From Laetmonice hystrix (lineage: Eukaryota): DNA of 64,000 nt. This document shows positions 8,641-46,895 of this stretch, in pieces (positions within the stretch are counted from its first letter, which is position 1; the number at the start of each line of letters is the position of its first letter). The stretch lies in assembly GCA_965235115.1 (NCBI GenBank), contig OZ249436.1, forward strand, positions 5,582,001 through 5,646,000. Direction: 5' to 3'. The position numbers were made by a program, and so were the translations under genes. Under the pieces are notes generated by a model. That model saw nothing but the letters and a program-made list of their open reading frames with translations, did not search any database and was not told where the DNA came from.

Positions 8641-9389
8641 TTAAGTTTCGCTTATTTTTGTGCCGATTTTGAGGACCTATAACAGCACAATTATAAGAGT
8701 GAGCATTCCCATATTTCATTAACTTACTATCCGTGGTGGGTATTTGCAAAATACAAGACAACAGGTTCATCCTGGGAATATTTATCCTGTACGAGTGGTG
8801 CCAAAATGGCGTTTTGGTCAATTTTTACCTAAAATATTTAGCTGCGCAACAGGGTTTTTTCCATTTGAAAAGGCATATTTTCTTTAATTCTTTATAGATC
8901 TTCACAAAACTTTCAGGGAATGCTTACTGGCCATATTCCGATATAGTCATAGTCCAAAATGGTTCACTTATGCTAAAAAGTCCTAGTTCTTCGACCTTAA
9001 GCATAGTGATATCCGACTTTTTGGAGGAGATGGATATTTCTGAAAGTTTAAAGTGCTCTAGAAAAGTGAGTTTTTAATATTTTTATTTTAAATTTGGCTC
9101 ATGGATAGTCTATGGAGAGGTCCTTTAGGAAAATACATTACAAGTTTCGAACTTGGATTAGATTTTTAATGAAGTCCTATCAAAAATGGCAAAAAAAGGA
9201 AAAATATGGTATTGGGCCCCACATATAAAAAAATGTCACACAAAAGGGATTGAGAGTACAGTCTCCAAACTTTTTTTAAATAACAAGGACATACATGTGT
9301 ACAGTTGACAAAAAAATGAGTAATGTGCTAGCTTTCCTTCCAGTCTTTAATGTATGATGAATACAGCCATTTTTTTTACATTCGCACGT

Positions 9390-9893
9390 GGGTCATTCCA
9401 TGTTGAACCAATGGCAAAAAAGTTGATGTCTCCGAATTTCTTTAAATTTTAACCACATATTTGACAGCCATATTTGGCCACCTCTGCAAAATTGCTAAGC
9501 ATTTGCACGAAAAAAATTATTGAGCAACCAGAAATAGTAAAACTTATTTTCTTCCCATTTTCAGACAATTATGCTGCCAAGATCCTTTCATATATCTCTT
9601 CAATCTTTTGTGGGCTTATTCTACACCAAACTGTCTGTAAGCAGAGCAAATTTCAGCCTTCTAGATGTAAAAACCTTAAAGTTGCAGGTATTTCAAAACC
9701 TATTCAGAATTAGTGGTGCGCTTTTGTCGACAACCCCCTACCTCATATTTGGAGGCCCCAGAGACACAATTTTTATCTAAATGCTTAGCAATTTTGCAGA
9801 AGTGGCCAAATATAGCTGTCAAATATGTGGTTAAAATTTAAAGAAATTCGGAGACATCAACTTTTTTGCCATTGGTTCAACATGGAATGACCC
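9390..9893. mobile_element. Second GGGTCATTCC-terminus (Sola2-like) MITE at the centre of the host palindrome
   Basis: ~115-bp TIRs starting GGGTCATTCCATGTTGAACC. Flanks ACGT and ACCT, read as a 4-bp TSD with one mismatch. Confidence 0.75.
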
Positions 9894-10285
9894 ACCTGCG
9901 AATGTGAAAAAGATGGCTGTATTCATCATACATTAAAGACTGGAAGGAAAGTTAGCACATTACTGATTTCCTTGTCAACTGTACATATATATGTCCTTAT
10001 TATTTGAAAAAAGTTTGGAGACTGTGCTCTCAATCCCTTTTGTGTGACAATTTTTTCTATGTGGGGCCCAATACCATATTTTTCATTTTTTGCCATTTTT
10101 GATAGGACTTCATTAAAAATCTAATCCAAGTTCGAAACTTGTAATGTATTTTCCTAAAGGACCTCTCCAAAGACTATCCATGTGCCAAATTTAAAATAAA
10201 AATATTAAAAACTCACTTTCCTAGAGCACTTTAAACTTTCAGAAATATCCATCTCCTCCAAAAAGTCGGATATCACTATGCTTAA

Positions 10286-11079
10286 AGGGGTAACTTTTGT
10301 TAGGACCCTAACAACTGGAGCCCTGCTGGGTCTCCCATTAGACCTATTAGATAACCATCAAGTGTGCAGTAGTCACTGGCAGGAGCCCGCCCGCACGGTC
10401 CCCACTGTCTAGCATAAGGGGGGCCCTGTGTGGGGACATGACTGTATGTTGTGGTAGCCCTGCCTCCACATACACAAATGCGTCTGTATGTTTCGGGTTG
10501 GGAGAAAACACATTTGTCACAACTGAAGTACAATACGCATTTGCCCTAGGCCCTGAGCATTCTCAGAAAAAGTTTTAAAAATCAACTTAGATCCTATGCT
10601 TCCTAGAAGACATACATCACTTCCCAATGGCACTCCTTGGTTGTGTAAATCCTTTATGTGATGCATACTCAGTGACTGTGCCCGAGTTCCCCAAGTAACC
10701 TGGGTGGTAATCTCCCATCAGGGCCTCCTTGCAGCAAGTCCAGCAGTCACCGGGTGGAGGGTGGGCCGTAATGGCTACATAACCAGGGGGTGTAAAGCCG
10801 CAGGGGGAACAGCGACAACATTTGAATCTAACTGACGAAAGCGATGGAAAAATCTCTGGTAGTACCTTTTTTACCTGGCCATTTTTTTTCATATTAATAC
10901 AGACGTTTCTTAAGATGTTCATGAACAAATGTGACATAAAATTTTCGAAAGAACCTTCTTTGTTCCACTTATATTTGCGATATTTCAGTAAATTCAGGCG
11001 GAGCTCTTTCCTGGTTGACATCATTAGCACCCTACTGGTTCAAAGGCTGTTCCGCCCTATTTATACTCCAGCTCCCCCT
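10286..11079. mobile_element. Kolobok-like non-autonomous element nested in the right arm
   Basis: TTAA TSD and short imperfect TIRs AGGGGTAACT / AGCTCCCCCT. The mirror arm has the empty site CGACCTTAAGCATAG at ~8992-9006. Confidence 0.8.
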
Positions 11080-12214
11080 TTAAGGTCGAAGAACTAGGAC
11101 TTTTTAGCATAAGTGAACCATTTTGGACTATGATTATATAGGAATATGGCCAGTAAGCATTCCCTGAAAGTTTTGTGAAGATCTATGAAAAATTAAAGAA
11201 AATATGCCTTTTCAAATGGAAAAAACCCTGTAGCGCAGCTAAATATTTTAGGTAAAAATTGGCCAAAACGCCATTTTGGCACCACTCGTACAGAAAAAAT
11301 ATTCCCAGGATGAACCTGTTGTCTTGTATTTAGCATATACCCACCACGGATAGTAAGTTAATGAAATATGGGAATGCTCACTCTTATAATTCTGCTGTTA
11401 GAGGTCCTCAAAATCGGCACAAAAATAAGCGAAACTTAAGTCTGGAAAGGGTCCAAGGGGTGACCAACTTAAAAATTCATATCTCGAAAACTATTTGGAG
11501 TACAGAAATAAAATTTTGCATGGCCCCATGAATTGGATCAAAGTTTTTATGAGTAAAATTTCATCAAAATCTATGATTTGAACTGGGAGGCCCTGGGTGA
11601 CTTGGTATGGAATGACCCATAAGATATCCGACTCTCGCGATTTCTGACGTCAAAAATGAGCCAACGCGACAGTGGCGCCGCACGACGGCTAGTCGCCTTA
11701 ACTAAAACTCCCGTCATCAAAGCCTATGCCTGGGCCTACTAGATAATAGCCTTGCTGACAAGAAATAGAACAACGAAAAACGAACACAAGTAACTAAATA
11801 AATAAATTAAAAGAATACCTAACAGACCTATCAATTTATTCAGATGGAAAAGCAAAATTTCGTGGTCAAAACTAAGATTCACGCTTGGCCTTGGTTTAGC
11901 CTAAACTAGCCTAAACTTAGGCTAAAGCCGCCACGGGCCTAGCCCTAGCCTAGGTAGTCGGACTCGGATGGTGCCGTGGTGAGCAGAGCCAGAGAGCAGG
12001 GGCAGGGGTGTCAGAATCCATTCAAAATTGGGCGGGAGGGGGGGGGGGCAGGCTGATGCTCCCCTATTTCGTTAGGAGGGGAAAATGATATTCTGATCCC
12101 TCCGACAAATATTGGGAGGAGGCCCCCCCCCCTCCCCTCGGCCCCTGTTCTGAATCTCCTGCTGCAGTCGTGCAGAGGTGGAACTCAGTCGGTGACGAGC
12201 CATAGCCTAGCCCA

Positions 12215-13665
12215 TAAGTTGGGAACTTGGGAGGTCATCCAGTTCTTACCACCACTTGACACCCCACAATGTGTGATTAGGCAGTTAGTCTTAATATTTA
12301 TGCAAACCCGAATGTTATAAAAATCAATCCTTAGCCTAGGCCTATTTATTTTATAGATTAGTTATACTCTAGAAACAGTGCGCTGCCGCTGCGCTCAAAA
12401 ACCTGTACTGGCCGGGTGTCGTGGGCCGCTGGTACAGCCGTCAACACGTTCATTGTCCTCATAATCGGCATTGGCTACTGTAGACTTTCTATGTTTATAT
12501 TTATACAGTTATAGCTTGGGTTCAATCTGTTTGTGCTTTCATTGTCACTTGTGACATCATAGTGTAGTTAACTACGTATTTTGATACATAATTCACTGAC
12601 AAAACGACAGTGCGTGCCTCGTTAGGTCAACTGTGGCTGTGACGTCATAGACATGACGTGCGGTGCAGTCTTGAATAGAAGGCTAGATCTAACGTAGACT
12701 GCACTCTTTTGCTGTCTAGCTCTCGTTTTATCGAAAGATACGACATAAGCAGAAACTTAAAAGGTCAGTAGATATTCTCAGAATATTTTAGCATTATAAT
12801 TTACCTGTTTAAACATCACCGTAGGCCCCTGATCCGACAGAGCTTAGCTTGGAACCTGGCTTTCTGTTGTGATATTTAACGTCAATATCAGGTTTTGGGC
12901 ACTTTTGAAATTTTCAAACGAAGCTCACTGTATTCATAAGTATAAGGAGTCTCGCTAAAAGGAAGACATCTATGGAGACCTTACGATGTGGGGAATAATT
13001 CTGGGTACTTTTTTGTATAGGTCGTCGCGACAGATTTTGCGTGGCAGCCTGCCAAACACGGAAAGGTCACACGTTTTTGGAAGTTTTCATTACACGTTTC
13101 TATGGTTTACATAGCTCGAAAGAAATGAAAATTATATGTAATCTGTCTAATTTCTATCCAACTCATAGCCTGGAATCTCTACTTTCATTTGCCACTATTC
13201 CTGTCCCGATCAACGAACTATGCACACCGCGAGCATACTTTTAATCAACTGAGGTGTCAAAAACTAGGTTGCCGCACTTAGGCCTGTACTATAGTTAAGG
13301 TGACTAGCCGTCGTGCGGCGCCACTGTCGCGCTGGCTCACTTTTTGGCCGCGAGTGGGATATCTTATCCTAGTACAATCTTTGACGTTATCGCCGGCCAG
13401 TCACTGGCCCAAGCGATGACAACGAACGTGTTGACGGCTCTACCAGCCCAAGACACCCGGCCAGTACACTGGTTTTTGAGCAGCCAGCAGCGCTCTAAAA
13501 TAACACTTTCTAACTATAAAATAATGATTTATTTTTATAACATTCGGGTTTGCATAAATATTAAGACTAACTGCCCACACTATTATCACCTAGAACGATA
13601 TAATAACATGTTCTGGGGTTTCAAGTGGGGGTTGAACTGGATGACCTCCCAAGTTCCCAATTTAC
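12215..13665. repeat. Inverted-duplicate segments C (12215-12450), A' (12455-13270), B' (13290-13390) and C' (13420-13665)
   Basis: Reverse-complement matches, e.g. TTGGGAACTTGGGAGGTCATCCAGTTC (12219) against GAACTGGATGACCTCCCAAGTTCCCAA (13634), and GCGACAGTGGCGCCGCACGACGGCTAGTC (11667) against 13302-13330. Confidence 0.85.
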
Positions 13666-13849
13666 GGTGTACTATAAAGTATAATAATAGGCTAGTGGAC
13701 TCCCACATTTCTTGGCGGACTCCTAAATTTTGCAACTTGTGAATCCTGCTGAGTAGTCCTAAAAAATCACGTACGAAATCTACCCCTGCGGTACAACTCC
13801 ATTCGACCCTGTCATAGTCGTGTCAGTGTCGCCATAGATCAATGAGTAA

Positions 13850-14307
13850 AGCGGTGTTTCCATTAACGCGGCTGCGGTCCGGCTGCGGTCCGGGCACGGG
13901 TACGGCTGATATCGCACGTCGTTGTTTTTAATGTAGGTGTTTCCATTAATGCGACCTCCGTACGGGGCCCGTACGGGCGTCGCATGCGGCTGTTCCCGAT
14001 CGCGTCATGGAGCGATTCGAGCACAGCCGCAGATGAGCCGCATGAGGGATCCCCTTGATCCTAGGTGGTCACGTGCATGTTGTTCACTCAAAAAATGGAT
14101 GGCACCATGCCTCACGTTGTCAGCAAGCAAGATATCCAAAAACATAACGAAAAACTTATCGATTCGGCAGGTGTATGGCCTATGACCTTATACCAACAAC
14201 AATGAGACGCAGCCGGGACGCACCTTTAAAAACAACGACGTGTCTTATCAGCCGTACCCGTGCCCGCACCGCAGCCGGGCCGCAGCCGCGTTAATGGAAA
14301 CACCGCT
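13850..14307. mobile_element. 458-bp PIF/Harbinger-like MITE, copy 1
   Basis: TIR AGCGGTGTTTCCATTAACGCGGCTGCGG with TAA and TTA flanks. A second copy lies in the opposite orientation at 48429-48886. Confidence 0.85.
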
Positions 14308-14399
14308 TTACTCATTGATCTATGGATGGTGTCGCGCTGTGGCGAGTGTGCCTGCAAGCTGCATGAGGCTGAGCCTGAGCCGAGGTGTGCCGTGCCGTG

Positions 14400-14680
14400 G
14401 TCCTTACCTGCGGCTGCGGTCACAGTTGGTGCATGTCGAACCGATAGCCACGCTATAATGTATCAGGCAACACACAGTTTTTCAATTATTGTCACCTGCC
14501 ATGATAATCACTTACCGTGTACCGTACGTCACCAAGTGTCATCGGCACTACCCCGTCCTTCACCTGTTCATCCACGGACCTTCATCCACGCGCTGCTGCT
14601 GAGGGAGCCTGCGTAAAACGTCACACCCCTATTTCTGATGACGTTTACACACTTCCGGTAGCAACCTGGCAACGTACCAC
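14400..14680. promoter_or_regulatory. Candidate TXN2 non-coding first exon(s) and promoter, possibly bidirectional
   Basis: Minus-strand donors ACG|GTAAGT (boundary 14516) and CAG|GTAAGG (14408). The region is CpG-rich, with an ETS motif ACTTCCGG (14651-58) overlapping RFX-like half sites GTAGCAAC-CTGGCAAC (14658-73). The TXN2 ATG exon has an acceptor at 5320-22, so an upstream exon is needed. Confidence 0.45.
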
Positions 14681-14959
14681 CACGCGGAAACACCTGAGGC
14701 TTACTCCCCAAAGAGAATGCCATCTGGAAAGGAAATGCCACATAGAAACGAGGCTGTGCTTAGCCCGAACGCGGCGAAGGTAGTGAAAAGAAAGAAGGCC
14801 GGCCAGCAGCGCAGTGGCACATCAGTACTCAGTACTCGAAGCTGCACTATAATGCTTCTGTAATATACAGCCCAACTTATCTTATTTATTTGTTGCACTC
14901 CATAGCTTTGCATTTTGATTTTACGCAACGTAAGTGGAATACGGACAGGAGGAGCCAGA

Positions 14960-16846
14960 TAATGATGCTAGTAGAGGGCAGAGAGCGAGGAGTGCAGACA
15001 CTGCTCCGATAAAGCCGGGCGTTTGTCTTTCCCTGCCTCCATTCAGAGGGAGTTGACACCAGGGGGCGCCACCACAAGTTCCTAGATGGCATCTGCGAGT
15101 AAAGGTCTTTTTTACTTGATAAATGAAAATAAAAAAATTCTCAGCCTCATTTACGGATATGGGCAGACAGCTGATGACCAGGGCAGTCCATTAGAATGGC
15201 CAAAATTATGCTATATCGTGTTTCTGAGATGCTAGAGCGCGAGGAGTAAAGAGCATGCCACTTAGGGAGATGCCATTTAGAACCGGAAGTTTCCAGATGG
15301 CATATGAAAGAGTAAAGGTCTATACTACTTGATAAATGGAAATAAAAAAATTCTCAGCCTGATTTATGGATAGGAATCGACAGATATTGATAGGGGCAAT
15401 GCATTAGAGTGATCAAAATTATGCTACATCGTGTTTTGTGGATGCTAGAGGGCAGAGAGTGGGGAGTGCAGACGATGCTCCGATATCGTTTTTCTCTGCC
15501 TCCATTCGTAGAGAGTTGACACCAGGGGGCGCCACCACAAGTTCCTAAATGGCATCTGCGAGTAAAGGTCTGTTTTACGTGATAAATGAAAATAAAAAAT
15601 TTCTCAGCCTCATTTACGGATATGGGAAGACAGATGATGACCAGGGCAATCCATTAGAATGGCCAAAATTATGCTACATCGTGTTTCTTAGATGCTAGAG
15701 CGCGAGGAGTAAAGAGCATGCCACTTAGAGAGATGCCAAGTAGAGCCGGAAGTTTCCAAATGGCATATGAAAGAGTAAAGGTCTGTTTTACTTGATAAAT
15801 GGAAATTAAAAAAATCTCAGCCTGATTTATGGATAGGAATCGACAGATAATGATAGGGGCAATGCATTAGAATGATTAAAATTATGCTACATCGTGTTTT
15901 GTGGATGCTAGAGGGCAGAGAGTGGGGAGGGCAGACGATGCTCCGATATCGTTTTTCTCTGCCTCCATTCGTAGAGAGTTGACACCAGGGGGCGCCACCA
16001 CAAGTTCCTAAATGGCATCTGCGAGTAAAGGTCTGTTTTACGTGATAAATGAAAATAAAAAATTTCTCAGCCTCATTTACGGATATGGGAAGACAGATGA
16101 TGACCAGGGCAATCCATTAGAATGGCCAAAATTATGCTACATCGTGTTTCTTAGATGCTAGAGCGCGAGGAGTAAAGAGCATGCCACTTAGAGAGATGCC
16201 AAGTAGAGCCGGAAGTTTCCAAATGGCATATGAAAGAGTAAAGGTCTGTTTTACTTGATAAATGGAAATTAAAAAAATCTCAGCCTGATTTATGGATAGG
16301 AATCGACAGATAATGATAGGGGCAATGCATTAGAATGATTAAAATTATGCTACATCGTGTTTTGTGGATGCTAGAGGGCAGAGAGTGGGGAGGGCAGACG
16401 ATGCTCCGATATCGTTTTTCTCTGCCTCCATTCGTAGAGAGTTGACACCAGGGGGCGCCACCACAAGTTCCTAAATGGCATCTGCGAGTAAAGGTCTGTT
16501 TTACGTGATAAATGAAAATAAAAAATTTCTCAGCCTCATTTACGGATATGGGAAGACAGATGATGACCAGGGCAATCCATTAGAATGGCCAAAATTATGC
16601 TACATCGTGTTTCTTAGATGCTAGAGCGCGAGGAGTAAAGAGCATGCCACTTAGAGAGATGCCAAGTAGAGCCGGAAGTTTCCAAATGGCATATGAAAGA
16701 GTAAAGGTCTGTTTTACTTGATAAATGGAAATTTAAAAAATCTCAGCCTGATTTATGGATAGGAATCGACAGATAATGATAGGGGCAATGCATTAGAATG
16801 ATCAAAATTATGCTACATCGTGTTTTGTGGATGCTAGAGGGCAGAG
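14960..16846 (+). repeat. 463-bp tandem array (dimer of ~230-bp subunits), about 4 units, left arm
   Basis: TGACACCAGGGGGCGCCAC recurs at 15054, 15517, 15980 and 16443. The alternate subunit carries CCGGAAGT. Confidence 0.95.
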
Positions 16847-17268
16847 GGTCCCAGGACGTTTCGATCGCGTACCAGTTCGAGCGCCGCTCCATTGCCAGTT
16901 CGAGCGCGAACCAGTTTGAGCACCGACCAGTTGAGCGGGCCTCCGTCGGCGGAGCCGCCCGCGTGTTACGCCCGCTCGTCGGGGGTAGATTTCGATCGAG
17001 ACCGCTGAGCGCGGCCAGTTGAGCGCGGCCCCGTTCGAGCGGCCGTAGGGAGGACACTGTCACTGTCAGTGTCGCAATATGACTAATGGCCACTAGTAAT
17101 ATCATCATACGAAAGATAGGGATACAATTCTTGCTGACTTCTGAGAACGGAACTTGTGAAATACAGGCCGAGTTGTGAAATAGTCGCGCTCGAAGTGGTC
17201 GGCGTCGGCGCTCGAAGTCGAAGTGGCCGGCGCTCGAACTGGTTCGCGCACGAAACGTCCAGACCCCA
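16846..17268. mobile_element. MITE with ~40-bp TIRs and TTCGAGCGC subrepeats, abutting or truncating the left arm
   Basis: GGGTCCCAGGACGTTTCGATCGCGTACCAGTTCGAGCGCC ... GGCGCTCGAACTGGTTCGCGCACGAAACGTCCAGACCC. No TSD visible. Confidence 0.7.
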
Positions 17269-17553
17269 AACAGTCTAACTAATGCCAAACTTGGCCGAAA
17301 TTGATGTAAATCGAGATTTAATTGACATCCATGGCCCATAGAGTAGGCTCCTATATAGACGAGATCTAGGCTTTTCGTGACAACTAGATCTAGGCCTATA
17401 GGTAAACGGTGGCGGATCCTGACTGTCACTCAGTCTCAGGTAGCTTGAGCGGCAGTCATTGCTTTGTTTGCGGCTGTTCGCGGCTTCCGACCGTCACCCT
17501 CGCAGCTACACTGCCGTTACAGTCAGGCCTGAGCTAGTTACAGTCAGGCTGCC

Positions 17554-20468
17554 ATGGTGAGTTTGTCTTGACTTTGGGTCCGCCCCTCCTACAAACCTAT
17601 AAAAATTTGACCCAACTTGTATTTTGCCCAGTTGTCGGAACAATCGGCAGCACAACAACAGGCTTGTGCCAAGTTGTGGGCGGTGGCTCCCAGACCCATT
17701 GCCGAGTGGCAGAGCGCTCTCTGGCCTTGACAAATATTTTTCGGATGCTGCTGAGTGCTGATTACTCCAAGGAAACGCAAATAATTTGTTGTCCTGGTGG
17801 TCACATATCATAGCTATACACACCATCGGGACATTTTTCTAACTTAAAATGTATTTTATAAAATGAATATCACTCTAGATCACAGGCTACGTAACGCCTC
17901 GAGCAGTGGCACACACAGGGAATCCCAAAACGTCTGAAAGACCGTTCTCGATTTGACGTCATTATCTGGTGCGGGTTTTGAATGGCATTTCGTTTCTAGG
18001 GCCGTTGCTATGGGCCGTTCTAATTAACGGGTGGACATAATAAAACGCAATTAACGAATTTTATTCCTCTATCTTATTACATTCAGTACATATCATGAGA
18101 TGCCTTCTAAATGACAGTTGACAGTACATCTTTAAGCATTGTGAACACTGACATTTCAAGTTAACGGCTAGAGGAAACCATACTTAGGCTAATGTTGTCA
18201 CAATCATGTTTTGCAGATAAGACAAACATCGTCTCAAACTGAACATGAACCTGAGAATAGAAGTTGATAGTTAAAGCAACTGTATCATGTCCTTTCTTGT
18301 TCATCTGGTTTGATGTTCTGTTTACATACATACCATTCTCTCAATATACAGAACAGTGACCCGAGAAGAAAATACGGGCGAACCGGGGCTGAGAAAGTGC
18401 CAGACTATGCCAAGCTCACTCGCCTTGAGGAACTTTTACTAGGTTATGCGGGTGAGGAAATAGTCACAGGTGAGCATTCCATTTATACATAACCTGAAAG
18501 CATTTATCACCGCCTGTTTTTCACCAGTAGTATTCTGGTTGTGTTGTAGATTATTACAGACTTGCTGTACAGAGGTGGGATAATACAATTTTATTTTATC
18601 TTATCTGCTCTCGAAGCGTCCCTTTTAAGTTAATTTTGTAGGTGTAGCAGCAAGGGGCCTTTCTTTCAACCTGTGAGGTGACCTGAGTTTTGGTGATCAT
18701 TTATTTGACAGGAATTACAGGCTTGTCGGCGGCACCTACACTAAGACTCCCAGGGCGAGTAGGCTACTGCTCTCAAATGACCCGAAGGATGGAAGGGTAG
18801 GCTCGGGAACGGTAAAGCAACGAGTCTTGAAGGGATGAAAAAAAGCAAGAAACCTAAGGATATAGAACCTTCGTCAGAGAGCTCTACAGAATCAGAAAGG
18901 TCCTTCACTATGGACCAATTCGATGTCATGAGAAACACAGATGAAGATGACAGTGAAGAGGATGGAGAAGGATCTGAAGGTTCGTCATCCTCGGAGAGTG
19001 GTTACTCTGTTGGTGGGTATCATGAGCAGTAATTGGGATTACACTAACAGATTCCTGAAAGGCAATGTCTTAGGTTGCTCACGTAACCAAATAATACCAA
19101 CATTACAAAACATAGCAAAATGTTCACAAACGATAGGACACTGTGCAGGACAGAGTCTGCAGCAGAAAAACCAGTCTGTCGATGATGTTAACGAAACGCC
19201 AAGAGACGCCAAGAATCCAACCTACCAGTACATGTATACTAGTCCTAGAACATCGTTTCAGTAGACCTTACATGAAAGGATGGAAGTATGGGCCTCGTTC
19301 ATTGTTTGGTGTTAGAAAAAAGCTTGTGTTTGAGACCTGAATTTTCACCGAATTTATCTTGAACCAGCTAGAGGTTTGTATGCATCTTTCAGAAACCTAT
19401 CATTCTGATTATCTAAATTGTCTGTCCATTGACAGTTGAAAAGGTTTGGCAGACCAATCAGCAAGTCATGCCAAGTACCTCAACCAGTACCACAGTCTTC
19501 CCTCAAAAGAAAGCAACGATCCGGTCGAGTACTGGAGCGTCAGGATCCCGACCACCATCCCCTGAGCGGAGGCAGCATTATGATCTCTTAGAGAAGGTCA
19601 CAGACCATCTGGACAACGGCATGACCACAATGGAGCGGCTGATGGAGAGAATGATACAGACGCATGAGAATACAGTTATAGGCGAGTTCACAAGTGAGCT
19701 CTAGGTAATTTAGCTAAACCTTTCTCTACTCGTTATCGCTGAACACTGTACACTGCTGTTAATAATTTAATAATTTAAGAGCAGCACAAAGTGATAAATA
19801 CTTGACATTGTATTTCGAAACACTCTTTTACAGTTCTGGCCTCCCTTGTTGATGGAAAAGACAAAAAGAGCTGTCATAAATACTGTTAAACCGACGGTGA
19901 AGGAATCATCCAGGAGCCCCAAATTCCTATCTACGATGGGAGTAATGGCAACTACCTTGGCCAGGCTATTGGTATGTAGCCCATGACCAGTCATGGTTAA
20001 CACACGACCACAAATCCATGTGATGACAAATTACACTGTACAAATTACACAATAGCTAATGTTACCATGTTTTCAACAACTGATGTAGTAGGCCTAATCC
20101 ACTGTATCATGACAAGACTTGTGAGAAAACACAACTATTGTATATCACCGGGAACATCGTTATGTTAAGCTGTCCTTGATGGGTTTTTTTTAGTAGAGAG
20201 ACCACTATTTACATTGCAGTTGAGGTTGAACCAGCACCGTCGCCAGCAGCGACCAAGGTGGAAGATGTTTCCAAACAAGTCCCGACCAAGGACACATCTG
20301 TGCAGCACGTCCCCACCTCCTGCTGATGAAGATGACATCCAAGCGCTCATAAACACTGTAAAAAACTACAGCGGAGAAGATGTGCACCCACCAGTCGGAA
20401 TCAGTACCTGTTCAATACCACGAAATCTGCCTAATCCTCTCTGCAGCAAGGCCAACATGGAAACGTAA
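17554..20468 (+). pseudogene. Decayed spliced cargo gene, possibly a Myb/SANT-like (Harbinger accessory-type) DNA-binding protein
   Basis: ATG|GTGAGT at 17554. Exon ~18351-18469 encodes RRKYGRTGAEKVPDYAKLTRLEELLLGYAGEEIVT and splices to GITG, resembling the post-SANT TGG...LT.LEE.....G...V.GI segment. An acidic/Ser-rich exon (~18712-19000, frameshifted), a coiled-coil-like exon (~19435-19680) and a frameshifted last exon (~20219-20468) follow. Confidence 0.4.
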
Positions 20469-21294
20469 CAAGCGCCACTAATTCTATGTCTAGGAACTAA
20501 TGCACTTTAAAGGTCGCTACTTTATGGCGCTAAAGAAGAACGTTCGCTGGTTGTCAAGGCCATATATATGAGGGCTGCCAGGCGGCCAGTCAAAATATTC
20601 CAGAGGCATTTTAGGGCATTTCCGAGATCATTTTTGAATTTTGATCCCCCAAAACGTTTTTTAACCCAAAATGGTTAAGAAAAATTTTGATTAAAAAATG
20701 CAAAATAATAACACTTGTACTGGTCATAATTTCCACTTTTTGATTTTTTTTTTCTAGCTGTGCCTACAATTTTTATACGGTGAAATTTAAAAAAAACATG
20801 GATTTAGCCCCAAAACACATATTTTCCCTAGAAAAGTGAATAAAACTACCACTTGGGAATGCCCATCATACTGAAACATGTGCCCCAGGTGATGATCTTT
20901 CAAAAAATATAGTGAGCCTTTGTCTCTCGAGATGTTACCAAAACGCGAATTTTAGGGGATTGGCCCATGGACTATATGAAAAATTGCAGTCAAGAAATAC
21001 TGCCAGATTTTGACGCATTACTGCAATATTTCATGATTGCAATACTTCGTCGCACACCTGTGCCCAGCTCTCGTGGTCCCCACCCCCCACCCCACCACCG
21101 CCACCACCACCACCACCACCCTTCAGGACATTACTAGTTATGCCGCTTTCTACTTTTTAAAAACTACTTTTTCATGTGCAAATACTTTATACGAATTTTT
21201 CTACCGAATCTATTATGTTGGCTGGGAAAGGACCTGCAACCTTTTCTATTTTTTGCCTTTCTATTTTTCTGCGATCTGATTTCCCGACTTTTCA

Positions 21295-23817
21295 CTTTAA
21301 GTGGCATACTCTTTACTCCTCGCGCTCTAAAATAATAATAATTTTGGCCATTCTAATGGATTGCCCATATCATTATCTATCGCTTCTTATCCATAAATCA
21401 GACAGATTTTTTTATTTCCATTTATCAAGTAAAACAGACCTTTACTCGCAGATGCCATTTAGGAACTTGTGGTGGCGCCCCCTGGTGTCAACTCTCTACG
21501 AATGGAGGCAGAGAAAGACGGTATCGGAGCATCGTCTGCACTCCCCACTCTCTGCCCTCTAGCATCCACAAAACACGATGTAGCATAACTTTGATCACTC
21601 TAATGCATTGCCCCTATCATTATATCTGTCGATTCCTATCCATAAATCAGGCTGAGATTTTTTTATTTTCATTTATCAAGTAAAACAGACCTTTACTCTT
21701 TCATATGCCATTTGGAAACTTCCGGTTCTACTTGGCATCTCTCTAAGTGGCATGCTCTTTACTCCTCGCGCTCTAGCATCTAAGAAACACGATGTAGCAT
21801 AATTTTGGCCATTCTAATGGATTGCCCTGGTCATCATCTGTCTTCCCATATCCGTAAATGAGGCTGAGAAATTTTTTATTTTCATTTGTCACGTAAAACA
21901 GACCTTTACTCGCAGATGCCATTTAGGAACTTGTGGTGGCGCCCCCTGGTGTCAACTCTCTACGAATGGAGGCAGAGAAAGACGGTATCGGAGCATCGTC
22001 TGCACTCCCCACTCTCTGCCCTCTAGCATCCACAAAACACGATGTAGCATAATTTTGATCATTCTAATGCATTGCCCCTATCATTATCTGTCGATTCCTA
22101 TCCATAAATCAGGCTGAGATTTTTTTATTTTCATTTATCAAGTAAAACAGACCTTTACTCTTTCATATGCCATTTGGAAACTTCCGGTTCTACTTGGCAT
22201 CTCTCTAAGTGGCATGCTCTTTACTCCTCGCGCTCTAGCATCTAAGAAACACGATGTAGCATAATTTTGGCCATTCTAATGAATTGCCCTGGTCATCATC
22301 TGTCTTCCCATATCCGTAAATGAGGCTGAGAATTTTTTTATTTTCATTTGTCACGTAAAACAGACCTTTACTCGCAGATGCCATTTAGGAACTTGTGGTG
22401 GCGCCCCCTGGTGTCAACTCTCTACGAATGGAGGCAGAGAAAGACGGTATCGGAGCATCGTCTGCACTCCCCACTCTCTGCCCTCTAGCATCCACAAAAC
22501 ACGATGTAGCATAATTTTGATCATTCTAATGCATTGCCCTTATCATTATCTGTCGATTCCTATCCATAAATCAGGCTGAGAATTTTTTTATTTCCATTTA
22601 TCAAGTAGTATAGACCTTTACTCTTTCATATGCCATTTGGAAACTTCCGGCTCTACTTGGCATCTCTCTAAGTGGCATGCTCTTTACTCCTCGCGCTCTA
22701 GCATCTAAGAAACACGATGTAGCATAATTTTGGCCATTCTAATGGATTGCCCTGGTCATCATCTGTCTTCCCATATCCGTAAATGAGGCTGAGAAATTTT
22801 TTATTTTCATTTGTCACGTAAAACAGACCTTTACTCGCAGATGCCATTTAGGAACTTGTGGTGGCGCCCCCTGGTGTCAACTCTCTACGAATGGAGGCAG
22901 AGAAAGACGATATCGGAGCATCGTCTGCACTCCCCACTCTCTGCCCTCTAGCATCCACAAAACACGATGTAGCATAATTTTGATCATTCTAATGCATTGC
23001 CCCTATCATTATCTGTCGATTCCTATCCATAAATCAGGCTGAGATTTTTTTAATTTCCATTTATCAAGTAAAACAGACCTTTACTCTTTCATATGCCATT
23101 TGGAAACTTCCGGCTCTACTTGGCATCTCTCTAACTAAGTGGCATGCTCTTTACTCCTCGCGCTCTAGCATCTAAGAAACACGATGTAGCATAATTTTGG
23201 CCATTCTAATGGATTGCCCTGGTCATCATCTGTCTTCCCATATCCGTAAATGAGGCTGAGAATTTTTTTATTTTCATTTATCACGTAAAACAGACCTTTA
23301 CTCGCAGATGCCATTTAGGAACTTGTGGTGGCGCCCCCTGGTGTCAACTCTCTACGAATGGAGGCAGAGAAAGACGATATCGGAGCATCGTCTGCACTCC
23401 CCACTCTCTGCCCTCTAGCATCCACAAAACACGATGTAGCATAATTTTGATCATTCTAATGCATTGCCCCTATCATTATCTGTCGATTCCTATCCATAAA
23501 TCAGGCTGAGAATTTTTTTATTTCCATTTATCAAGTAAAACAGACCTTTACTCTTTCATATGCCATTTGGAAACTTCCGGCTCTACTTGGCATCTCTCTA
23601 AGTGGCATGCTCTTTACTCCTCGCGCTCTAGCATCTAAGAAACACGATGTAGCATAATTTTGGCCATTCTGATGGATTGCCCTGGTCATCAGCTGTCTTC
23701 CCTTATCCGTAAACTAGGCTGAGAATTTTTTTATTTTCATTTATCAAGCAAAACAGACCTTTACTCTCATATGCCAGGTATGAAGTTGTAGTGGCGCCCC
23801 CTAGTGTCAACTCTCTC
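21295..23817 (-). repeat. Same 463-bp tandem array in inverted orientation, about 5.5 units, right arm
   Basis: GTGGCGCCCCCTRGTGTCA at 21472, 21936, 22398, 22861, 23328 and 23791. Confidence 0.95.
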
Positions 23818-25317
23818 CAGGGGCGCCGCTGCCGGGGGGGACGGGGCCGGGGGACATGCCCCCCCCCCCCCAGTTTTGCTGGCGACCTAAAAAGGTCAAA
23901 GGCTCCTTGAAGTTGAAGCTAGGCCTAATAGATAGATCTACAGGTTTTCTTATACTCCCTATGCCTAGCTTTTTAAGGTGAATTGCCCATGGGAGGCAAA
24001 TTAAAGATAGATTTTAATCATTTTTAATCTTGGCCTTCGCAGGCCTAAGCCTATGTCATGTGTTTAGGAGATAGGTCTATGCTTTGCTGTTCTATAATTA
24101 ATATGGGCCTAACCGCGGCCTAGATCCCCTGCAGCTTCCCTGTGTACCTTAGTCCTACCACACTGGCGGATCCAGGGTAGGGGGTCACATAGGGTCTGGA
24201 CCCCCCTAAAATATATATATTTCATGGCGCCCCTCCTGCCGTTCATGGCGCCTCACGGCATTGTAGGGCTACATAAAACTTTTGACATCATTGGTCTTTA
24301 AATAGCTTTGTGCTCCAAAATGCATCAGATTTCACCAAATTACACCTTGAATTTGAAAAATTTCCGGGGGGCATGCCCCCGGACCCCCTAGCAAGGCTTT
24401 GTGCCTTCGGCGCTCGTACAGTCACACCGGTTGCGTCCCTAAAAACGTTGGCCCCCCTACTTGAAAAAGCTGGATCTGCCCCTGTACCGTCTCTTGCTTA
24501 ATTAGCTCATAGACCTGAATATTCAGGTCAATCTTAAGCTCTAGGAAATCTAGGCCACGCTTTAATTATTGTCTGACAGCGTTAGGCCTGCGGCCGTCAA
24601 CATTTTTCACCCCCATGTTGGGCCTTCCTATTTGATTTTGAAGAAAAAGACCTCATGCGTGAATGTATTCAAATAATGAGTGAAGTTTACCAATTTTTAC
24701 TAGGCCTAGTGTGGTAGAATAGAAAGTGGCAAGTAGGATGGGGATGGTCTCTATTTTATTTGGTGTGTTTTAGGCCTAATCGTCAACTTTTTTGGCTTCT
24801 GATAAATATTGCTTGATACTGTTTTTGTGACGTCAACGGCCAGGTGAGGCCCACCTAAAAAATTTGTTTTGCCTCGCTACGCTCGGCATGATTTCATTGT
24901 AACTGTAGGTACTAATAGTATAATACATCTTCATACAAAAAAGGAAGATCTAAGGGGAGGCAAGCCCCCTGATTAATCCCTCACTGATTAATACATTAAT
25001 CTTTCAAAAAAAAAAGCAAAAGGTCGGCACCGAAAGCTCTTTAGTTTGATGCTGAGAAGCCGGGAAATAGCACCGACGGCCTTTTATATTCCCAAAGTCG
25101 GAGCTCCCCCCCCCCTTTCGGCGCGTGGCACGTTCTGACACCCCCCCCCCCCCCCCCCCCCCAAAGAAAATCCTGGGTCCGCCCCTTGGGGGGGGGGGGG
25201 GGGTGAATACACTGTTATTTTGAAATTCTTATGGTACATAAATCTCGGGGGAAAAGGTCAAACACACCAAGATTGCCCCCCCCCCCCCCCACTTTGAAAT
25301 AGGCAGCGGCGCCCCTG
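23818..25317. mobile_element. hAT/P-like non-autonomous element inserted in the right arm; contains a nested MITE
   Basis: TIR CAGGGGCGCCGCTGCC with a 7-bp duplication CTCTCTC on both sides. The left arm shows the uninterrupted site. Confidence 0.85.
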
Positions 25318-26310
25318 CTCTCTCGGAAGGGAGGCAGGGAAAGACGAACGCCTGCGGAACAGCGTCTGCACGCCTCACTCTCTGACCTCTAGCATCATTA
25401 TCTGGCTCCTCCTATCCAAATTCCACTTTTTCTACGTTGCGTAGAAATAAAATGCAAAGTTATGGAGGGCAACAAATAAATAAAAGATAGATCTAAGTTG
25501 GGCTGTAGAGTCTATATTAGGGCCTACACTAATTTACAGCCATATCATTCTCATAGTCATAGTGCAACTTCGAGTACTGAGTACTTCAATGTGCTACTCC
25601 GCTGCTGGCCGGCCTTCTTTTGTTTTCACTACCTTCGGCTTCGCCGCGTTCGGGCTAAGCAGCCTCGTTTCTATGTGGCATCTCTACTTGGCATATTCAG
25701 TTCACAAGTGGCACTCTCTTGCTCCGCTGAGCAGTTAGTCCGCGGAAATGGTACTGTTTGTTTGTAGTGTAGCAGTTGAATGGTGCCAGTTTGATGTTTT
25801 GTGAATAATTGTATTCCAAGGTTTGTATGCTACACTATTACACATGACGAACACGTTCCTTTTGTTGTTAAAATATAACAATCTTCTGTCAGTGTCATCT
25901 CATAGCCATACCAGACGTCCAGAGCCAGAGGCAGAGAGTGTATAGTAACGACGTTACACTCGCTCTCTGCTCTGCCGCGGACTGCGGCCGCAGCTCAGGC
26001 CCCAGCCTCAGGCCAGTCAGGGTCTGCGACTGCGGCCATACCCATACCCCAGACCAGAGTCCATGGCATAGCCAGAGAATCCGTGCATGTGGATTTTCAG
26101 GGGCGGGGCAGTTTTTGGGAGCGGCAGTGGGTTTTGGGGGGGCAGGGCGCCATGCCCCTCTGAAACTGTATAGCTAGGGCTCTGGACTGGTAACTAATCT
26201 AAATATAGTAATACTTCAGTTCTAGTTGAAGTTCTACTCTGCAAATCTAAAAAAAAATTATGCCAATGATTCCATTTCTCATTTCAGGTCTTGATTGAAA
26301 ACAGGAAGCT

Positions 26311-28391
26311 ATGGCTGTACAGCTACTTGACCTGCCAAAACCAGGAAACATGAGCTGCCTCAGCAACCGTGCTCATCGTACTGGGGCACGTCCCAAACAA
26401 TCTCTCTTTGGGTCATCCCTTCAGATGAGGGACGAGAAGATGTTATCAGAATTAAAGGCCATTGATCTTCAAAAATATGATATGGAGATGAAAGCTCGGA
26501 GTCAGAAAAATCGATCATTGTCTCCTGAGCTTGAGGCCATCTTTGGACCTGGTAAGACCAACTGTTTTTCAAAATGCAAAATAATATGTTTACTTTAAAT
26601 GGTGTAAACATCTTGAAAAATGAATTCAACTCAAAAGTCTTGTAGAGCATGTACATGTACTTCTAATTTATGACCCCATTTCACAATTGAAAATACAATG
26701 ATATTTTACTCAAATGAGCTGAACATACCGGTCTGTTATAAGGTCACAGAAGGCTTTTAAAATGCCGTAAGTATAATAGAATTTAGGAAACTGCACTATC
26801 ATACTCTCTTTGACTGAAGTATCCTGTAACATCGTATCTATAGCAGTCAGTGTTAAACACAACATATTTAGGGCTTCTTGGAGGTTTTCACATTAAAGGC
26901 CATGTGTCGGGGACATTTACTAGAAGATGTGCAACATTCTCAGCACCCTCAGGTAGATTACCGGTAGCATAGCAGTTTCTTGATACCCTTTTTAACTCTA
27001 GCTGGGCTGGCAAACTTAGTTACTCTACCTGTTCCCTGTATTTAGATCATTGTGCTTATACTATATGTACCGGTACTGGTAGTGGTGCTGACAATAAGAA
27101 AGATTAAATTTGAAAGTAATTTTTTTGTTTTTGCCAATTTAAAAAGTCGAATTTATCGTCATTTTAAATTAGTAAGGTAATCAGGCTTTTGAGGCTGATG
27201 CCACTAGTACTATGACATAAGATATTTATTGAGAAATTTAGATGATGTACCGGGGGTATTCTGTTCGTCAAATATGAGGACAATTTTTTGATTATGAACA
27301 GGTGAGCAGTTGATTCAACACAACCAGCAACAGCTTCAGGTCCAGGAAGCAAAAATCAAGCGGGCAGAGAAGATGCTGTCTTCAATTGAGGAGAAATCCA
27401 AATACTTTCAGGTCCAGCCAGTACCAAGTCCAGAAGAGTCGCAGAAACTGTCCAAGCCCCGCCAGTGGATGAGTGAACAAGACATAGGCCACGCCAGTGA
27501 AATCAACAGTGTTGGTCTGAAGAACGGTAGTTATAATCACCATAAGTATGGAAAACGACCTCCTGTCCATCAGTACACTTTAATAGGGGATGTTTTCTCC
27601 AAAGGGATGGATTTCCAGGACGTGACGGACAAACCCAACTATTTGGTGCCTCCAATGATCCCTTACAAGCGCCACAGGGATCCCTATGAAGTACCAAGGG
27701 AGTGTTACATGAAAGACGCCACTGGAGGTACCATTGTGGGAACGTCCTTGAAGATGCCCCCAAACATTCAACACCAGTTCGGCAGTAAAGTGTGTGCTGC
27801 TCTTCTCTCTGATGCTGACAAAGTGAAACAAACCCTGGCAAGCCAGCATCACACTCAGACAATTGCAGCCCGCCAACATCGACCTAAATCTAAAGTTGAA
27901 CTCCCACCCGAAAATTTGAACCCAACCTATGCACAGCTGGGAACTTCTACACGTTCAAATATTTTTGGACCAAGTGTGACGTATGGACACAAAGTTAGTA
28001 AAACAAAGCAAGATTTTTCTAAAGAAATCCACCAAAGGCGTGTAGCTGAGACAGACGAGTATCGCTATCAACGGGATGAACTCAGTAAGTCATTGCAGCA
28101 TCTCTGCTCCACCTTTCTTTGTAAATATGTCTAGCTCTAGACCAGATGACAAATGGCACTTACCTCTAAAATAAATTAAAGGCTGATCATGATAATGTGA
28201 TTACTAATGCTATGATTGCAGGGGGAGTCTTGTCCCTATACAGTTCATATGTTCCTGGCACAGTGTAAGTGCAGTGCTCAGTGCATACTTATCTTTCTCT
28301 TCTAGGTTCCTGGGCTGAGCAAAACGTCCTCCGTCAGCGTGTGAAAAAGGCATGGGATGGGCTCCTTGACGGATCTAATCCAAGGAAATAA
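26311..28391 (+). CDS. TEX33: TEX33-like testis-expressed protein, isoform with the proximal last exon
   Basis: Exons 26311-26551, 27302-28084, 28306-28391 (TAA), all junctions phase 1. MPPNIQHQFGSKVC and LGTSTRSNIF...SKTKQDFSKEI...RDELSSWAEQNVLRQRVKKAWD resemble remembered TEX33 motifs (IPSNIRHKFGS; LGYDLRANLF...RKTDELGRWHQKN). Confidence 0.75.
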
Positions 28392-28792
28392 TTACTGACC
28401 GTCATTAGCGGGGCAGATTGGTGGGGTTCTTCCAGACACAGGACACTGAAATAGCTGCATGTCTTACTTTTCTTTTCTTTTTTCTTTTCTTTTTTTGGAG
28501 GGGGGAGGGGGACACGTCAACTCTACTCCTTCATAGTGTACTTTTTAAACTCCTAAGTGGTAGGTGTACGCGTGATTTTATTTCCTTTGGTTGTATATGA
28601 GTCATGACATTTTGGCTGTTTATGGATGAAGACTGATTATAAACCGATCTTAATATATCAAAGACATGATTGTATGTTATTTCACTGTCCTAGCCTGGCA
28701 TGAAATCCGTAGTTTGAATACTCGGGGTAGTACAACATGTATGAATATGTTCCAACGTGAGATTACCTATCAACAGTGCCTGTTTTTGCCAG

Positions 28793-29136
28793 GTCTTTGG
28801 TGGCAAGATCACACAATCAGGGAGCGTTTGAAGAAGAAATGGGAGGAGTATGACGAGAGCCGACCCAAACCGACACTGAACTGGGACCGCAACGCTAAAC
28901 GTCCACAACCACCTCAGAAACCCAAGGAGCCCAAGCCAAAACTCAAACCAAAGCCAAAACCCAAACAGCCAACACCGCCGCCCCAAAGTGACGTAATAAT
29001 AGAAGATATTGAATTTAAAACGCCGCCATTGACGCCACCTCCGCGCGCCACATTGCCCCCACCAATTGCAACACTCGCGGCAGAAGACGATGATGACTTT
29101 TGGAACTTTTATGATCAAGGTATACCGCTACCCTGA
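28793..29136 (+). CDS. TEX33: Alternative distal last exon of the TEX33-like gene (Pro/Lys-rich extension)
   Basis: Acceptor TTTTTGCCAG in the same phase 1. Encodes SLWWQDHTIRERLKKKWEE...PKPKPKP...EDDDDFWNFYDQGIPLP*, homologous to the proximal last exon. Confidence 0.75.

Positions 29137-46804: not shown

Positions 46805-46895
<91 letters not shown>

Follow-up and report, generated by a model that had tools for sequence, protein, structure and literature searches.

Elements of the hAT group carry an 8-bp target site duplication (TSD) together with short matching terminal repeats, P and Galileo elements have matching CA-type termini, with a 7-bp TSD in Galileo, and PIF/Harbinger elements combine a 3-bp TSD with a Myb/SANT-like DNA-binding helper protein. 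Zisupton was reportedly described by Boehne et al. in 2012 with subterminal inverted repeats, and to our knowledge Zisupton/KDZ elements have not been described with kilobase tandem arrays. Reiterated CTCF clusters are known from herpesviruses. For Muta1, sections of two accounts (PMC5499845, PMC5225508) describe subterminal repeats that bind the transposase, with more repeats raising excision, as well as a TSD of 8 or 9 bp and derivatives with unequal repeat numbers and captured interiors. Excerpts on Rehavkus report it from insects and annelids (bioRxiv 10.1101/2024.12.02.626372; PMC6446971). With regard to genome folding, passages of recent reviews present the spiralian evidence on CTCF looping as fragmentary.

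Within the window, i.e., the whole 64-kb stretch of DNA that was analyzed, we identify an 11,050-bp element at 14691 to 25740 that is bracketed by an 8-bp TSD. The sequence-only reading had placed a foldback element at 14708 to 25725; the element stands, and its ends are corrected to 14691 and 25740. The insertion and its host flanks comprise the following features:

14600..14682, no strand assigned: host DNA resembling a promoter, to the left of the insertion, with what we take, by consensus, to be ETS, CRE, and X-box-like words
14683..14690, forward: left copy of the TSD, CGCGGAAA, the longest word common to both flanks and present once in the empty allele
25741..25748, forward: right copy of the TSD, from flank comparison and the empty allele
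26311..29136, forward: host gene TEX33, in the flank outside the element (Pfam PF15400, E 3.7e-13; six homologues)

The six TEX33 homologues came from a search at near-equal length, and a search for homologues of greater length returned none. The putative start codon of the gene lies 570 bp from the right tip of the element.

An empty site was seen in contigs from three of the four public runs (X1 to X4, which share one sample label and one study); X4 is without flank coverage, and the count rests on the other three. In the empty allele, a flank contig passes from 14680 directly into letters identical to the window from 25742 onward, and the promoter-like stretch joins the TEX33 side directly. 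In two contigs, one each from X3 and X4, the match ends exactly at 14691 and gives way to different flanking DNA. Contigs of the left and right ends reach 4 to 7 times the flank depth, a rough figure based on single-contig depths. The depths of the two ends are alike, which is compatible with paired arms at other loci and is not proof of them. Together, the boundaries, the TSD, the empty allele, and the other flanks at the left tip establish a real, mobile transposon. The element is a mobile foldback-type transposon present in several copies, few in number, and its insertion is polymorphic, with some chromosome copies carrying it and others not. The insertion lies just upstream of TEX33, at the promoter-like stretch, and is probably recent. 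A foldback-type mobile element had been proposed from the letters, with its true termini and TSD still to be located; both have now been found (14691 and 25740; 8 bp), along with the empty allele and other insertion sites.

The two arms are organized as follows:

14691..15027, forward: left tip and nonrepeated outer arm, with loose contig ends exactly at 14691 in X3 and X4
15028..16846, forward: left array, 3.9 copies of 463 bp (97%), with 4 CTCF-like motifs, 16 YCYAnnTGGCA sites, and 4 ETS cores
16846..17266, no strand assigned: small inverted-repeat element of 0.42 kb bordering the left array on its inner side, with ends GGGTC/GACCC and short subterminal repeats
21292..23817, reverse: right array, 5.4 copies of 463 bp together with a degenerate piece on the inner side, with 6 CTCF-like motifs and 5 ETS cores
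23818..25317, no strand assigned: nested 1.5-kb element in the right arm, with perfect 16-bp inverted ends that begin CAGGGGCG and a 7-bp duplication, CTCTCTC
25318..25740, reverse: right tip with its outer arm, which matches the left outer arm at 90% of ungapped columns

Each 463-bp unit consists of subunit A (250 bp) and subunit B (213 bp), and the right tandem array proper runs from 21338 to 23816 (period 463, 5.4 copies, 96%). In full-unit register the arrays are 93 to 99% complementary. The ETS core CCGGAAG, found four times in the left array and five times in the right, is invariant among units (0 of 8 columns variable). The left array stops at the 0.42-kb inverted-repeat element, around which a flanking duplication was looked for and none seen. 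Junction contigs of the nested 1.5-kb element have depths of 268 and 229 in X1 and X2, and a covering contig has a depth of 202 in X3; several family copies apparently carry this insert. The observed/expected CpG ratio of the arrays (0.67 and 0.70) resembles the window mean (0.74) and is uninformative on methylation. Hairpins were not supported at either tip (z of −1.1 and 0.05), and Rfam gave zero matches across the 64-kb window.

Tandem-repeat inverted arms, a TSD with an empty site, and copies at other loci, by which the foldback class is defined, are all present here, whereas the inverted match between the arms, which in that class reaches the very ends, begins 20 bp in, the outermost 20 bp of the tips being unmatched. 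With regard to superfamily, hAT fits on TSD length and was rejected on the nonmatching tips, which start with CAC and GAC; P/Galileo was rejected on both the 8-bp TSD and the nonmatching tips. Membership in PIF/Harbinger was rejected on the 8-bp TSD versus 3 bp in that group, the Myb-like interior counting as a lead. An 8- to 10-bp TSD with inverted repeats of more than 100 bp, by which a section of PMC5499845 recognizes MULEs, is found in the element. The 12 interior reading frames scanned gave no Pfam match of any kind, the zinc finger and DDE transposase of MULEs included, which a nonautonomous copy need not encode, and no KDZ transposase, SWIM, SAP, or protease was seen in the interior frames scanned. 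On these features the element may be MULE-like or Zisupton-like.

Between the arrays lies a gene in decay:

17554..20470, forward: decayed spliced gene, with a candidate first exon consisting of ATG only and pieces at approximately 18352, 18712, 19436, 19834, and 20220
18352..18469, forward: its best-preserved exon (39 codons plus 1 base), with relatives P0001 and P0004

That the arms enclose a decayed spliced gene had been claimed earlier and is borne out by exon-like pieces with GT/AG borders and by later pieces that carry stop codons or shifts of frame. For the best-preserved exon, phmmer returned eight matches, of which P0001 (88% identity, E 2.3e-13) and P0004 (60%, E 4.5e-6) were used; P0003, P0006, and P0007 were left out, as were P0002, P0005, and P0008, which were rejected as leucine-rich repeat look-alikes. 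Pfam assigned no family to the resulting three-row alignment, and a search among 1,598 candidates yielded no longer homologue, which is weak evidence. In Atlas, where a score below 0.9 counts as a lead only, the exon pointed to clusters of the Myb_DNA-bind_5 type (score, 0.84; 16% of members), and the ten best matches with a family all share the Myb_DNA-bind_5 family or clan; the coiled-coil-like piece at 19432 to 19698 gave no usable match. Membership of the interior gene in a Myb/SANT-like family is thus suggested as only a lead.

The 19-mer TGACACCAGGGGGCGCCAC occurs exactly on the forward strand at 15054, 15517, 15980, and 16443 and on the reverse strand at 21472, 21936, 22398, 22861, and 23328, and a further reverse-strand copy, at 23791, differs from it by a single C>T mismatch. 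All ten CTCF-like motifs listed by the sequence-only reading, four forward on the left and six reverse on the right, are therefore present. A further, unrelated match with three mismatches lies at 38514, and none of 100 shuffles reached 11 matches to the 19-mer. Scored with our own reconstruction of the JASPAR MA0139.1 counts, the motif reaches 22.4 bits out of 28.2 (p 1.4e-8 per position), a score equaled by 2 of 100,000 resampled units under this reconstructed matrix and by none of 5,000 column-permuted matrices; as sequence, the claimed strong CTCF motif in convergent order holds true. The C>T exchange, the sole change among the ten copies, costs 0.8 bit under the reconstructed matrix. Outside the element, the window contains five CTCF sites of at least 15 bits, against approximately 0.5 expected (reconstructed matrix), so that motifs of the CTCF class are probably in live use in this genome. 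Two unrelated sites, at 38513 and 55031, begin with TGACA and end with CGCCAC as the element’s motif does, a post hoc observation on a small number of sites.

All ten motifs go back to a single site that the tandem array has copied and do not represent ten independent events. Inverted arms render any such motif convergent or divergent automatically, so that convergence is a one-in-two by-product. The window contains nine transposon tips with the sequence CAGKGGCG, which falls short of the CTCF core by one base, versus 1.9 expected; this enrichment places the neutral chance of a CTCF-like site above the shuffle estimate. Variable columns amount to 1 of 19 in the motif versus 38 of 319 elsewhere (nine units; Fisher p 0.71, an underpowered comparison), and in the public runs 0 of 14 variable places fall inside it (p 0.48). 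The motif is confined to subunit A and absent from both tips, its outermost sites lying approximately 0.36 kb and 1.9 kb from them.

Another motif, YCYAnnTGGCA, is common to tips and arrays. It has 39 sites in the 11-kb element versus 1 in the 53 kb outside and, with four sites per 463-bp unit, is four times denser than the CTCF-like motif. Its TGCCA core begins 27 bp inside each tip, with further cores 45 bp in on the left and 47 and 60 bp in on the right. Every TGGCA word in both arrays (38 of 38) fits YAnnTGGCA, the TGGCA cores have 0 of 20 columns variable (p 0.15 versus the rest), and both subunits retain the TGGCA site that precedes their common AT-rich segment. The notion that these are weak CTCF sites was rejected, since every site scores below 0 bits. 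YCYAnnTGGCA is a better end-pairing candidate than the CTCF-like motif, probably acting via the transposase.

We regard it as fairly likely that the element is a nonautonomous cut-and-paste foldback transposon in which YCYAnnTGGCA is the transposase site and the CTCF-like motif a by-product. A transposase from outside the element would mobilize it in trans, and the arms would represent amplified end-recognition modules. YCYAnnTGGCA appears the most likely transposase site because it keeps a constant distance of 27 bp from the two cut ends and recurs four times per unit; as no transposase was found, we only infer that it binds there. By analogy with Muta1, more copies would allow better end binding and pairing, and the tip mismatch would be tolerable because the distance from the first site would determine where the cut falls. 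The CTCF-like site would have arisen or been captured once, in subunit A, and then been copied and mirrored along with the array; CTCF may bind it, its convergent layout being a presumed geometric by-product unneeded for transposition. Any effect on TEX33 would come first from the 11 kb separating the promoter-like stretch from the gene. Weighing against this explanation are a CTCF match far above chance for one unit (2/100,000; 0/5,000), a C>T change that at 0.8 bit is what selection would leave, the five sites of at least 15 bits outside the element, and the single sample label and study behind all four runs.

A host-factor platform independent of orientation, in which every unit is bound, under selection, by CTCF, an ETS factor, and possibly also YY1, seems to us unlikely. 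The arms would be kept open or shielded from silencing, like Su(Hw) sites in gypsy, the transposase would gain access, and the element would be a mobile insulator that requires no arm-to-arm loop. This would agree with the strong CTCF motif and its one tolerated change, the invariant ETS core, and the two unrelated window sites (38513 and 55031) resembling the motif’s start and end. It would also agree with what portions of two papers describe: a Dimorphilus CTCF motif that tops open chromatin, mostly at promoters (PMC7854359), and a 12-site Su(Hw) array in gypsy whose potency scales with site number (PMC7168160). However, excess conservation of the motif is undetectable (1/19 versus 38/319; 0/14, p 0.48), and the enriched CAGKGGCG tips (9 versus 1.9 expected) make a neutral origin likelier than the shuffles imply. 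We give a small chance to an active foldback family with arms selected for true CTCF arrays, in which each jump would deliver a two-way ten-site promoter insulator, with an arm-to-arm cohesin loop as a further possibility; if so, allele-specific insulation at TEX33 would follow, and with it direct evidence on CTCF folding outside vertebrates. The model of the sequence-only reading, namely, that convergent CTCF arrays stall cohesin, loop the 4.4-kb interior, pair the ends, and form a boundary, strikes us as very improbable. Usual cohesin loops are far larger than the 4 to 9 kb available here, the decay of the interior gene leaves nothing intact to insulate, and convergence arises automatically half of the time. 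The outermost sites lie well inside the tips (~0.36 and 1.9 kb), and copies with the 1.5-kb insert apparently multiplied anyway; a bracket that pairs the ends by looping finds no support where the motif is absent from the tips and another motif is common to tips and arrays. The arrays do hold four and six strong sites, forward on the left and reverse on the right, which is the vertebrate loop-anchor order (rule as given in a section of PMC13317027), and Mutator TIR motifs mark placozoan loop anchors in the corresponding part of PMC12221973. Against this, passages of the literature describe sea star and sea urchin as without a CTCF orientation pattern, an annelid Hox example as without a clear directional arrangement, and CTCF-dependent extrusion as not yet observed outside vertebrates.

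The interior gene figures in a further reading, to which we assign a slim chance: it would be the relic of a DNA-binding helper that binds YCYAnnTGGCA and recruits the transposase. The Atlas lead to Myb_DNA-bind_5-type clusters (0.84) and protein-level conservation of the exon in P0001 and P0004 point this way, whereas the exon has no Pfam match and no longer homologue, its Atlas score is below 0.9, a helix-turn-helix part was not found in the interior gene, and the 8-bp TSD departs from the 3 bp of Harbinger. Finally, a local inverted satellite duplication or an assembly error would account for the mismatch in the first 20 bp of the ends and for the filled left junction, which is spanned by none of the contigs listed for the four public runs. 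It is contradicted by the empty allele with its single 8-mer, by other flanks at the identical tip, and, in independent contigs of the public runs, by joints between units and by variants specific to one arm; we consider this reading largely refuted and give it hardly any credence.

The element offers a way to ask whether CTCF directs orientation-dependent loop extrusion outside vertebrates. Ten inward-facing strong motifs, for which one promoter provides both a filled allele and an empty one, constitute a natural knock-in, and with this polymorphic ten-site cassette CTCF looping, insulation, and directionality could be compared between the alleles of an invertebrate whose genome need not be engineered. 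CTCF aside, the element is a clean mobile foldback case with unmatched tips, a candidate end-recognition motif 27 bp from the cuts, and 463-bp units; should CTCF fail to bind, what remains is a new nonautonomous family of the ordinary sort.

Like Zisupton/KDZ elements, the element has inverted repeats that begin inside its tips, and it shares with them an 8-bp TSD, as given in part of PMC12730594. In the sections describing Muta1 of Aedes aegypti, a MULE and type 2 foldback element, we find a TSD of 8 or 9 bp, a range that includes the 8 bp seen here, and likewise long arms of subterminal repeats, and its derivatives resemble our element in unequal left and right repeat numbers, a foreign interior, and insertion near a gene. 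Muta1 repeats measure 12 bp, in contrast to the 463-bp units with four short sites each seen here, and the element differs further in its unmatched tips without a terminal palindrome and in that no transposase was found. Rehavkus and Tetris, as portrayed in excerpts of 10.1101/2024.12.02.626372 and PMC6446971, also have long-monomer arrays in both inverted arms that are homogenized between arms; the TSD of Rehavkus is 9 bp instead of 8 bp (PMC6446971, Table 1), the PHD-finger transposase of Rehavkus is lacking in the element, and those excerpts mention no CTCF motif for either family.

Mobile elements with insulator-protein motifs are also known, such as the Su(Hw) array of gypsy (in a portion of PMC7168160) and the CTCF sites of B2 SINE, HERV, and MER20 (in a portion of PMC7786948). 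For these, the excerpts describe demonstrated binding or insulation, whereas our element is known from its motif alone; unlike them, it is a DNA transposon whose two arms carry the sites in mirror image. The placozoan Mutator TIR motif, according to sections of PMC12221973, similarly combines an inverted-end motif, promoter insertion, and a proposed architectural site, but placozoans are without CTCF and the link there rests on Micro-C. Many CTCF sites through repeat expansion are likewise seen in Firre R0 (per a section of PMC4820808, in which R0 binds CTCF without the canonical motif), DXZ4, and D4Z4; these and the herpesvirus clusters, unlike the element, are not known as mobile cut-and-paste elements. 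Among the papers listed from the openly licensed PMC and bioRxiv literature, judged by title and opening of the abstract, we found no description of convergent CTCF arrays in foldback arms. The foldback architecture itself is of a known structural kind.

The stretch at 14691-25740 is a real, mobile, and polymorphic foldback-type element. In a word comparison of flank against flank, the only 8-mer common to both is CGCGGAAA, starting at 14683 and 25741. To test the boundaries, four public sequencing runs (X1 to X4) were compared as contigs with window positions 14330-15440. In X1, X2, and X3, the left-flank contig departs from the window at 14680 and resumes identical to it from 25742 onward, and an empty allele with a single copy of the 8-mer is present in these three runs, the left flank lying outside the coverage of X4. 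In addition, in one X3 contig and one X4 contig the match to the element begins exactly at 14691, with other DNA beyond, which fixes the left tip and shows that other insertion sites exist. The shared 8-mer, the empty allele, and the contig ends together set the element's length at 11,050 bp and its target duplication at 8 bp, supplying the true termini that the sequence-only reading had sought. The four runs share one sample label and one study and are thus not independent, and the best-covering run may be the assembly's own source; filled and empty alleles both exist, whichever run underlies the assembly.

The X4 contig on 14691-14975 (1,188 bases; depth 247 in a small run) has a left tip 90-95% alike and a different flank. 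In the empty allele, the 8-bp target sits within a 6-bp inverted pair, GTACCA before and TGGTAC after, making a symmetric target site (14673-14690, 25741-25754); the filled allele of the window has 3 additional bases (one more CCA) ahead of the duplication.

The 19-mer previously read as a CTCF core was found exactly where claimed on the forward strand (15054, 15517, 15980, and 16443), and on the reverse strand in five exact copies between 21472 and 23328, plus a tenth at 23791 that differs by a single C>T substitution; shuffled sequence gives a mean of 0.01 matches. These copies belong to two 463-bp-period arrays (3.9 copies left, 5.4 right) that are reverse complements of each other (93-99% in full-unit register), and beyond the arrays the two ends are alike over ~330 bp (90%, ungapped columns). 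Each unit joins a 250-bp subunit A, with the CTCF-like site, to a 213-bp subunit B, with an ETS core, both having a GC-richer, motif-bearing start (119 or 82 bp by subunit in unit 15435-15897) and a related 131-bp AT-rich end, an arrangement that might accommodate bound factors alternating with nucleosomes. The features that adjoin or interrupt this architecture are as follows:

16846-17266: small 0.42-kb inverted-repeat element, ending the left array on its inner side
23818-25317: nested 1.5-kb element in the right arm, with 16-bp inverted ends and a 7-bp duplication
right neighbour of the element: TEX33 (PF15400, E 3.7e-13)

Relative to the flank contig, depth is 4.3-5.1x for the left end, 6.3-7.0x for the right end, and ~110-190x for the unit, these being single contigs in which depth is not copy number; read loosely, this amounts to a handful of copies whose ends each have about ten units, and not to an independent satellite. 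The nested-element junction is about as deep as the element ends, so several family copies probably carry the nested element. No duplication was found at the flanks of the small element, which may therefore have removed the inner portion of that arm on the left. It has GGGTC/GACCC ends, short subterminal repeats, and a CpG observed/expected ratio of 1.44, and it shares its first five bases with the Muta1 terminal motif given in PMC5499845.

The sequence left of the insertion resembles a promoter, containing ETS, CRE, and X-box-like words, and the element may have landed in a bidirectional promoter. A short candidate for a first coding exon, with GTAAGT as its donor, lies at 14520-14600 (-), in a putative gene divergent from TEX33. 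Elsewhere in the window we observe a ~0.5-kb MITE with 100-bp inverted ends in two copies of opposite orientation (13832-14325 and 48426-48887, 96% identical); a 1.66-kb stretch (11670-13326) whose inverted ends start CAGTGGCGCCGC and share their tip class with the nested element; a large foldback-like pair, recognised by eye, within 8640-11440 (~8640-9000 mirrors 11090-11440, ~9000-9340 mirrors 9950-10290, plus an inverted pair nested at ~9390-9900); and a multicopper oxidase gene (43136-53616; Cu-oxidase_2, E 6.4e-13) with several minisatellites within its introns.

Another motif, YCYAnnTGGCA, has 39 sites inside the element versus one in the remaining 53 kb. Every unit contains four, oriented both ways, and each of the 38 TGGCA words in the arrays conforms to YAnnTGGCA. 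The motif is also found in the tips, where the CTCF motif is absent. Over their first 20 bp the two ends differ, yet a TGCCA core starts exactly 27 bp inside each end, with further cores at 45 (left) and at 47 and 60 (right). Placement at a fixed distance from both cuts, together with multiplication along the arms, is what transposase sites show, and YCYAnnTGGCA is a putative site of this kind; as CTCF sites these words are ruled out, all scoring below 0 bits. For Muta1, subterminal repeats are described as strengthening transposase binding, more repeats giving higher excision (PMC5499845). We consider it probable that a partner transposase encoded elsewhere would bind the TGGCA sites, pair the element ends, and cut 27 bp outside the first site, the element having presumably inserted with an 8-bp stagger, in this case into a promoter; the arrays would be amplified end modules and the CTCF-like site a passenger, or at most a secondary aid.

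That the element's own Myb-like helper binds TGGCA is quite improbable. The interior (17554-20470) holds exon-like pieces bordered by GT/AG, the later ones with stops and frame changes, and its description as a decayed spliced gene is fair. Exon 18352-18469 has two clear relatives among eight hits (proteins P0001, 88%, and P0004, 60%). A Pfam search of the interior gave no match and no transposase; Atlas features of the exon give a weak indication of Myb_DNA-bind_5-type proteins (score 0.84, 16% of members), an identity we treat as a lead.

Against the vertebrate matrix JASPAR MA0139.1, with counts entered by hand, the CTCF-like site reaches 22.4 bits out of 28.2 (p 1.4e-8 per position), a score attained in 2 of 100,000 dinucleotide resamples made from a single unit and by 0 of 5,000 column-permuted matrices. 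The strong motif asserted earlier is thus real as sequence, and a CTCF function of these predicted sites is unproven. Outside the element, the window has five sites of at least 15 bits versus ~0.5 expected, which suggests that the genome makes use of this motif class. One of the five (53506) falls within laccase coding sequence. The motif may have a lineage-specific form. Three of the five have A at position 4, where the vertebrate matrix has C, and two unrelated CTCF-like sites, 38513-38532 (+) and 55031-55049 (-), begin with TGACA and finish with CGCCAC just as the element's motif does.

A selected, orientation-independent CTCF and ETS platform, keeping the arms open or insulating, is doubtful, and a selected mobile insulator is unlikely. 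The ten copies are a single event, through tandem amplification and arm mirroring. Among nine units (the truncated innermost right unit left out), variable columns number 1/19 in the motif versus 38/319 elsewhere (p 0.71), and 0/14 variable places in the four runs fall inside it (p 0.48), neither count showing constraint on the motif; the sole change among motif copies costs only 0.8 bit, which leans slightly toward constraint. Transposon tips of the form CAGKGGCG, one base short of the CTCF core, number nine in the window versus 1.9 expected, two of them terminating the nested 1.5-kb element. A neutral origin would therefore be likelier than the shuffles imply. The sequence-only model, in which convergent CTCF arrays form a cohesin bracket that loops the cargo, pairs the ends, and makes a boundary between host genes, is very improbable: a motif placed in inverted arms has an equal chance of ending up convergent or divergent, boundaries in sea star and sea urchin are reported to lack a CTCF orientation pattern (PMC13317027), CTCF in the annelid Dimorphilus is described as promoter-centred single motifs with no clear directional arrangement (PMC7854359), and CTCF-dependent extrusion as so far unobserved outside vertebrates (PMC12221973). 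TAD borders in a squid are reported as enriched for CTCF (PMC10658181), so the question of CTCF folding outside vertebrates stays open. An artefact is barely credible.

Zisupton elements carry subterminal repeats, which the non-matching tips described here resemble; hAT, P, and Harbinger are rejected on tips or target duplication. The 8-bp duplication fits both MULE and Zisupton/KDZ as described in PMC5499845 and PMC12730594, and Rehavkus is rejected as a family, its duplication being given as 9 bp (PMC6446971). Insulator-site-bearing transposons are reported, namely gypsy (PMC7168160) and B2, HERV, and MER20 (PMC7786948), as are placozoan Mutator ends at loop anchors (PMC12221973); mirrored CTCF-motif arrays in DNA-transposon arms were not found in searches of CC-licensed PMC papers and bioRxiv. 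With its filled and empty alleles, this ten-site cassette makes CTCF insulation and directionality testable in an invertebrate. Finally, the element works like a type 2 foldback, as do Muta1 derivatives (PMC5499845, PMC5225508) and Rehavkus and Tetris, whose arms carry satellite arrays (bioRxiv 10.1101/2024.12.02.626372, PMC6446971), and is a variant not previously met of a foldback type already known.
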